DNA of 57,123 bases, counting the filler, from Bipalium vagum (taxonomy: Eukaryota): assembly GCA_037834085.1 (NCBI GenBank). It is 3 parts of 3 records of this genome, joined end to end, with 100 filler letters (N's around TTAATTAATTAA, not from the genome) between each part and the next. Parts side by side here need not be neighbours in the genome. Positions count along the whole stretch, not along the records: positions 41,511 to 57,123 come from JBBMKC010156152.1; 2 more parts are not named here. One strand, written 5' to 3'. This document shows positions 46,996 to 47,701 of this stretch, in pieces. Position numbers and translations under genes: made by a program. How positions within the stretch are numbered: the first letter of the stretch is position 1; each line of letters starts with the position of its first letter. Under the pieces are notes generated by a model. It was not told the origin of the DNA and ran no database searches. It was given only the letters and a program-made list of their open reading frames with translations.

Positions 46996-47701
46996 ATGAA
47001 ATTGTTAATATTGTCCATTTTACTACTTTTTCTCATGACTTTTTGTTACTGTTCAAGGTATTAATATTTTGAAAATTTATTTTATGATTATTTTTAATTA
47101 ATCAATCAATTAATAAATTTCGCTTGCACAATGATTAGTTTTAATTGGTTGTCTTTTCCAATTGAATCAATTGCCAATTTACCGTTTGATTTTCTGCTAT
47201 TGAAGTGATTTTGGTGCGTTCACTGATTGATTGGATCTTGATCAAGAAAAAAAATGAATAAAATATAATAAATAAAAATATGTATATCAAATGTTAAGGA
47301 ATAAAATACCAGATGAAGTACTTGTACTGCCTTGTAAAAATGGCACTGCTAGCTGCATGTTTGGCGATTGCACTTTTTTTAAATATACTTGGGAAGATGA
47401 TATATTTGAATCAGTTGATTGTGAATGCCATGAAAATTATTATGGATCATCTTGTAATAAAAGACGTCACTCTTTGTTTTCGAACAGCCTGGAAAACAAA
47501 AACGAAGAAGGGAATGAAGATTTTTTAGAGGAAGAAGATGAAGATGAAATTAAAAGGTTTAAAAGATCCATGGAACATCCAGCTGACCAAAAACATTGGC
47601 ATGATGAAGATGGTGATGCACATTATGAAGGAGATGGTCATAGCCATCAGCACTGGAATTCGAAAGACGATTACTATGACGAAGATTTAGATGAAAAATG
47701 A
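46996..47701 (+). CDS. Secreted EGF-like-domain precursor with acidic spacer and His/Asp-rich tail (154 aa; exons 46996-47057 and 47299-47701)
   Basis: Exon 1 MKLLILSILLLFLMTFCYCS (signal peptide), donor AG|gtatt; phase-2 acceptor ttaag|G joins ORF 47291..47701; C-x6-C-x4-C-x16-C-x-C-x8-C; KRR and KRFKR sites; AATAAA at 47788. Confidence 0.85.

Follow-up and report, generated by a model that had tools for sequence, protein, structure and literature searches.

A predicted secreted single-EGF protein of the flatworm Bipalium vagum and its relatives in schistosomatids

The DNA analysed (the window) is a stretch of 57,123 nucleotides (nt), filler included, from Bipalium vagum (assembly GCA_037834085.1), in which three parts of three records are joined end to end; the gene described here lies at positions 46,996 to 47,701, in the part taken from JBBMKC010156152.1. 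Its product is predicted to be a short secreted precursor, in which a single EGF-like module is followed by a dibasic site, an acidic spacer, a second basic site and a His/Asp-rich tail. By sequence, the module belongs to an unnamed and unstudied family of schistosomatid proteins, and the gene is a new variety of the secreted single-EGF proteins of flatworms. We favour, with a probability of roughly 0.45, the reading that the product is a secreted, likely convertase-trimmed, non-canonical single-EGF flatworm signal, which is endogenous and acts at short range, most probably on a duplicated flatworm EGFR.

Relatives were identified by searching a library of 1.84 billion cluster representatives, from which two proteins were obtained at E values up to 0.001. 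One of these was set aside as a repetitive product. The best match was a hypothetical protein of 168 amino acids from Schistosoma mekongi/japonicum (P0005; E 1.2e-4), and searches from this protein gathered relatives in Schistosoma, Heterobilharzia and Trichobilharzia, including Smp_136860 (XP_018652399.1, S. mansoni), EWB00_002648 (S. japonicum), MN116_006412 (S. mekongi) and MS3_00007292 (S. haematobium). The EGF module was aligned with the relatives without a gap and was identical at 21–23 of 50 positions (42–46 %); the same 21 of these 50 positions, 15 of them non-Cys, were common to all five relatives compared. When sequences were shuffled with the Cys residues fixed, none of 500 shuffles reached the score obtained with each of seven relatives (118–134, against a shuffled maximum of 69). 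Motif comparison covered 15 of the 25 relatives; the full 6-4-16-1-8 motif was present in 12 with identical spacing, and the other three were truncated or alternative models. The preliminary description of this DNA, in which the combination was not recognised from any named family, must be revised in this respect, as the EGF part is no orphan. No published paper on Smp_136860 was found in literature searches.

Conservation is concentrated in the module, which is 91 % identical among five schistosomatids, the flanks being at 50 % and 55 %. The residue before Cys6 is Trp in all 12 full-motif relatives, never Arg, and is Ser in the Bipalium vagum protein. None of the 12 has a hydrophobic stretch after Cys6 (at most 0.41), and four carry a basic cluster (RRK or KK) 29 residues past it. 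Pairwise, the region after Cys6 matched the relatives weakly (score reached by 9–261 of 500 shuffles). With a family profile, one non-colinear stretch was found after Cys6 (F-x-N-S-L, then acidic; 5.6 bits), the score of which was reached by 0–5 of 1000 shuffles and by two of 498 other stretches; the first part of the spacer bears a weak likeness to the C-terminal F-x-N-S-L/acidic stretch found in the schistosomatids. The module is thus old and constrained, and the cut sites and the His tail would be additions or reworkings within the lineage. As the relatives lack both KRR and the His tail, the two-product layout would be specific to the Bipalium vagum lineage.

Full models of the relatives begin with a hydrophobic N-terminus (1.3–2.2), compared with 0.67 in the RefSeq model of Smp_136860; surveys may have missed Smp_136860 because this model lacks the hydrophobic N-terminus. 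There are sequence hints that the fluke genes contain one intron after the signal exon and another inside the EGF domain, the second being absent from the Bipalium vagum gene. Among the individual models, that of Trichobilharzia (P0030) departs from the family sequence in mid-loop between Cys3 and Cys4, and three schistosome models (P0029, P0013 and P0008) diverge just before the PYH motif.

The gene model was assembled from two exons in AT-rich eukaryotic DNA (26.4 % GC in the window). Translation of exon 1 from the ATG at 46996 gives MKLLILSILLLFLMTFCYCS plus 2 nt, with a strong hydrophobic core, and the donor reads AAG/GTATTA. Exon 2 lies in a long open frame (47276–47701), and the phases of donor and acceptor agree (both 2). 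Eight AGs are listed between 47058 and 47400, of which two (47298 and 47352) are in frame and open; 47298 is the sole acceptor that keeps the homologous domain, because splicing at 47352 would remove Cys1 together with the conserved PDE..PC stretch. Both strands of the 57 kb window were scanned for signal-like ATG..GT exons by using a filter designed with exon 1 already known, and exon 1 was the single occurrence; block shuffles yielded 0.55 such exons per strand (0.1 in phase 2). The GC content of exon 2 by codon position (51/29/24 %) is coding-like and the frame is intact. The gene is present in a single copy in the window. The junction 47057/47299, the cleavage of the signal peptide and the secretion of the product are predictions from this model.

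The six Cys residues (Cys1–Cys6 at 47333–47455) are spaced 6-4-16-1-8 and form an EGF-like signature, with a C-x-C-x8-C end, Gly two before Cys6 and Ser directly before it. By hydropathy and pattern, the precursor has a prohormone layout (signal peptide, dibasic sites, no anchor). The anatomy given in the preliminary description (signal exon, KRR, acidic spacer, KRFKR, tail of 44 amino acids, no membrane segment) was read again in the sequence; the spacer is indeed acidic, but extends over 28 residues, and the stretch quoted earlier is its acidic end only. The peptide predicted to be released at KRR has about 55 residues, a net charge of −7 and one N-glycosylation sequon (exon 2 residue 14), which the relatives lack. 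S-x-E sites are located at exon 2 residues 63 and 90. His is enriched in the tail (P for at least 7 His of 44 is 6e-5 to 3e-4, with an assumed background of 2.3–3 %) and forms two H-x-H clusters; an internal repeat was not significant (score reached by 75 of 500 shuffles). The tail ends in Tyr among acidic residues, a context typical of Tyr sulfation.

EGFR ligands are marked by an intron between Cys4 and Cys5 and by a nearby membrane segment; in verified ligands Arg41 hardly varies, and position 13 is Tyr or Phe (PMC1618406). The Arg is missing from tomoregulins, and the Cys4–Cys5 intron from Drosophila spitz and gurken (PMC1618406). The Leu47 position is also important for ligands (PMC4202326). 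In the Bipalium vagum protein Ser occupies the Arg41 position, so that the domain is atypical in the way first described; Ser also stands at the Tyr13 position before the second Cys (His or Asp in the relatives), and His at the equivalent of Leu47, which would be removed by the KRR cut. The whole domain lies within one exon, and no membrane segment was found in exon 2 (best 19-residue hydropathy 0.76), the frame of which closes with a stop. Judged by these marks, the protein is not a canonical EGFR ligand.

Fold assignment was carried out at several levels. Pfam EGF-clan scores were below the curated cut-offs (15.3 versus 21 bits and 14.5 versus 24.3 bits; E 0.02–0.04), and no member of the family alignment scored better than E 0.023 against Pfam. 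Four sequence matches were obtained in the PDB: amphiregulin, Mg1a (second, E 0.19), a herpesvirus glycoprotein and TGF-alpha (E 0.13–2.3). EGF clusters came first in the ESM Atlas at 0.85, which is taken as a lead only, and the fold searches gave no informative match. An AlphaFold model of the module (predicted local distance difference test, pLDDT, 75.6; predicted template modelling score, pTM, 0.46) contains a long hairpin between Cys3 and Cys5 (22–31, 34–43) and a strand from the conserved N-terminal extension; everything after residue 55 was modelled at pLDDT <50. Taken together, these results make an EGF fold of the module likely, for which three disulfides of the EGF type (1–3, 2–4, 5–6) would be expected; the 44-residue tail is likely disordered.

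The protein was compared with two planarian catalogues. Smed-egf-1 to -8, EmEGF and seven Prostheceraeus EGF-type proteins are listed in PMC4914847; in the available portion, the 6-4-16-1-8 spacing occurs in none of the planarian and Prostheceraeus proteins, and the core motifs of the family were not found in the supplement, although one split over two lines could escape such a search. The same source gives six EGFRs and two anchor-less ligands for planarians, in which RNA interference with egf-6 copies an EGFR phenotype, and three EGFRs without a listed EGF-type ligand for S. mansoni; EGFRs multiplied independently in flatworms (PMC4914847). The 16-residue loop, described earlier as long, is present; loops of 16–17 residues occur also in the putative spiralian ligands Lepidodermella EGF-1 and -2 (PMC4914847). 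Prostheceraeus EGF-4 is a secreted EGF protein followed by an acidic stretch and KR (PMC4914847), and EmEGF consists of a signal peptide and one EGF domain (PMC12963305). Planarian prohormone sequences are given in Table S5 of PMC2953531, and five motifs of the Bipalium vagum protein are absent from its seven supplements as far as these were available. The protein is thus, as supposed, not among the EGF ligands or prohormones of the two catalogues searched; a planarian orthologue may already have been named elsewhere, for example beyond these catalogues. The family is a candidate for the missing EGF-type ligand of S. mansoni.

In the favoured reading, the precursor would enter the secretory pathway and form three disulfides. 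Signal cleavage would most likely take place after Cys17 or Cys19, according to the −3/−1 rule. Convertases would cut at KRR and KRFKR and leave a peptide of about 55 residues, which would signal locally. Because the equivalents of Arg41, Tyr13 and Leu47 are missing, the peptide would either engage a divergent receptor site or serve as a modulator or weak agonist, through the invariant PDE..PC..GTA.CMFGDCT face; a divergent receptor would be the simplest target, as flatworm EGFRs have multiplied independently. The acidic spacer and the His/Asp tail would form a lineage-specific pro-region that aids packing into secretory granules and maybe binds metal, outside the conserved function.

Several observations weigh against this reading. 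A dibasic site adjoining Cys6 was found in none of the 12 full-motif relatives, so the freeing of the EGF module as a separate peptide is not conserved. With Arg41 and Tyr13 both replaced, the target may be something other than EGFR. In the PDB, the family profile placed Notch EGF repeats (E 0.02) above EGFR ligands (E 1.1–2.6). Relatives outside Schistosomatidae were not found by searches that are insensitive to short divergent domains, which is a patchy distribution for an ancient signal. At the level of the gene model, acceptor 47298 has no T-rich tract, unlike the acceptors of the neighbouring JIP3-like and phosphofructokinase genes, and an in-frame Met is located at 47291, three codons upstream of the start of exon 2.

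These last two features would fit a wrong gene model, with the junction unused and a start at the in-frame ATG 47291 without signal peptide, or with a silent locus. This is very unlikely in view of the unique signal-like exon 241 nt upstream, which has the right phase and a good donor, of the hydrophobic N-termini of full-length relatives, and of the intact frame with its coding-like GC pattern. The prohormone with two effectors proposed in the preliminary description would release the EGF-like peptide together with the 44-residue His/Asp peptide, the latter selected as a binder of Zn, Cu or Ni. Two basic sites flank the acidic spacer as in the planarian prohormones (PMC2953531, Table S5), and the His enrichment with its two H-x-H clusters exceeds chance. 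The tail, however, has no counterpart in the relatives (0–6 His in 86–97 residues in those with the full motif), no second species carrying it was found, and its internal repeat is not significant; the pairing of EGF module and His peptide, with the dibasic site also missing, is not conserved. Peptides rich in His and Asp generally bind Zn, Cu and Ni, and the tail may bind metal. The N-terminal Cu/Ni motif needs His in third place and is not present, because His would be fourth after cleavage. This proposal is considered unlikely, and the preliminary description can be regarded as confirmed in its observation and partly supported in its interpretation.

Equally doubtful is a structural secretion (mucus, adhesive or egg capsule), with the EGF module binding partners and the His/Asp/Tyr tail cross-linked through metals or oxidised Tyr. 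The missing receptor-binding residues agree with such a role, and in mussel adhesive proteins EGF repeats are combined with ends that are acidic and Tyr-rich. Eggshell proteins and a His-rich glycoprotein head the female-biased genes of S. japonicum (PMC4851400). The Bipalium vagum protein, on the other hand, has a single EGF module, 91 % conserved in flukes that lack the tail, only three Tyr and no repeat array, and its convertase-like sites would part the two modules. A venom-like EGF mimic directed against prey or predators, comparable to gigantoxin I and Mg1a, is the least probable explanation. The toxin layout, in which an anchor-less EGF domain follows the signal peptide almost directly (PMC8851504, PMC4202326), is shared by the Bipalium vagum protein, and Mg1a was the second PDB match; Mg1a, however, retains Gly39 and Arg41 (PMC8851504; see also PMC13311285), a pair that is incomplete here as the Arg is missing. 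Anchor-less EGF proteins are, moreover, ordinary in flatworms. The conservation of the nearly invariant module among schistosomatids, compared with 50–55 % in the flanks, is more in keeping with a conserved endogenous signal than with a toxin, and purifying selection in non-hunting parasites and the single copy in the window also favour an endogenous role; the toxin option raised earlier therefore fits poorly.

A wider version of the favoured reading is distinctly improbable: that the proteins form a flatworm-wide class of Arg-less, anchor-less ligands, which would be the missing schistosome EGF-type ligand and, in the planarian-like lineage, a prohormone co-releasing a metal-binding His/Asp peptide. 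Such a class would have been overlooked because of scores below the Pfam cut-offs and a signal exon that is often mis-annotated; if it were real, convertase processing and metal handling would be tied to EGFR signalling. Stem cells of planarians and parasitic flatworms are under the control of EGFR signalling, and the Bipalium vagum gene links a free-living-type flatworm sequence to Smp_136860, a schistosome protein that is nearly invariant and unstudied. If the reading is true, a verified ligand lacking Arg41, Tyr13 and an anchor would broaden what counts as an EGFR ligand. As long as the His tail is known from no second species, it is to be regarded as a curiosity of this lineage.

Features of the gene and mobile-element fragments in the window (positions along the whole stretch)
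Feature	Position	Strand	Remarks
Exon 1, predicted signal peptide, 20 codons + 2 nt	46996..47057 (62 nt)	+	11-residue hydropathy 3.42
Inferred GT-AG intron, 241 nt, phase 2	47058..47298	+	Frame and phase match; junction inferred
Exon 2, 133 codons + stop, no membrane segment	47299..47701	+	Acceptor AG 47297-8; TGA 47699-47701
Conserved module: PDE..P extension and six-Cys EGF-like domain	47309..47458	+	Homology; weak Pfam EGF-clan scores
KRR, predicted convertase site	47459..47467	+	Directly after Cys6-Asn; absent there in relatives
Acidic spacer, 28 residues, net −11	47468..47551	+	Between KRR and KRFKR
KRFKR, predicted furin/convertase site (R-x-K-R)	47552..47566	+	Sequence pattern
His/Asp-rich tail, 44 residues	47567..47698	+	7 H, 10 D, 5 E, 3 Y; net −12
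Candidate polyadenylation signal ATTAAA	47710	+	Such words are common in AT-rich DNA
Candidate polyadenylation signal AATAAA	47788	+	Such words are common in AT-rich DNA
Mobile-element fragment, DDE_1	4104-4382
Mobile-element fragment, reverse transcriptase	21522-21965
Mobile-element fragment, Mos1-type helix-turn-helix (HTH)	36817-37134
Mobile-element fragment, gag-type aspartyl protease	41769-42056
Mobile-element fragment, transposase HTH	52248-52586
Mobile-element fragment, integrase C-terminal/SH3	53057-53500		Weak match

An (ATC)/(ATT) microsatellite (46811–46858) is located about 140 nt upstream of the ATG of the gene, and tandem pairs of 22–23 nt (48543–48652) lie downstream. An open frame of 231 codons (P0004; 45940–46635, minus strand) lies 360 nt from the ATG of the gene, in head-to-head orientation. 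It gave no Pfam match, occurs once in the window, and may represent either the relic of a mobile element or an unknown gene with which the promoter is shared. Elsewhere in the window were identified the first coding exon of a JIP3/RILP-type gene (20261–20629, minus strand; RH1 domain, E 1.3e-12), with an apparent intron of about 50 nt after it, and the N-terminal exon of an animal-type phosphofructokinase (56205–56495, plus strand). The mobile-element relics include mariner, DDE and retro-element fragments.

Compared with known systems, the Bipalium vagum protein shares the six-Cys pattern and the equivalents of Gly18, Tyr37 and Gly39 with canonical ligands (amphiregulin, TGF-alpha, Spitz) and tomoregulins; it differs from the former in the absence of Arg41, Tyr/Phe13, the Cys4–Cys5 intron and the membrane anchor, the Arg before Cys6 being likewise missing in tomoregulins. 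Mg1a (ant) and gigantoxin I (sea anemone) are also short secreted precursors with one EGF domain and no anchor, but in Mg1a Arg41 is retained and a C-terminal pro-region is missing, and gigantoxin precursors are of about 88 amino acids with signal and propeptide; nothing in the present analysis points to a use in venom. A signal peptide, dibasic sites and acidic spacers are shared with planarian prohormones (PMC2953531, available portion), although the Bipalium vagum protein has no repeated or amidated peptides. Closer in layout are Smed-egf-6, Smed-egf-7, EmEGF and Prostheceraeus EGF-2/3/4/7, which have a signal peptide, one EGF domain and no membrane segment, and in Prostheceraeus EGF-4 the domain is likewise followed by an acidic stretch and KR; these anchor-less flatworm ligands have other Cys spacings, most retain G-x-R-C, and in egf-6, egf-7 and EmEGF the EGF domain lies near the C-terminus. 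The schistosomatid proteins have no KRR after Cys6, no His/Asp tail, Trp before Cys6 and a basic hairpin loop, whereas that of the Bipalium vagum protein is acidic; they share with it the hydrophobic N-terminus (in full models), the PDE..P extension, the CMFGDC core, the lack of an anchor and a similar length.
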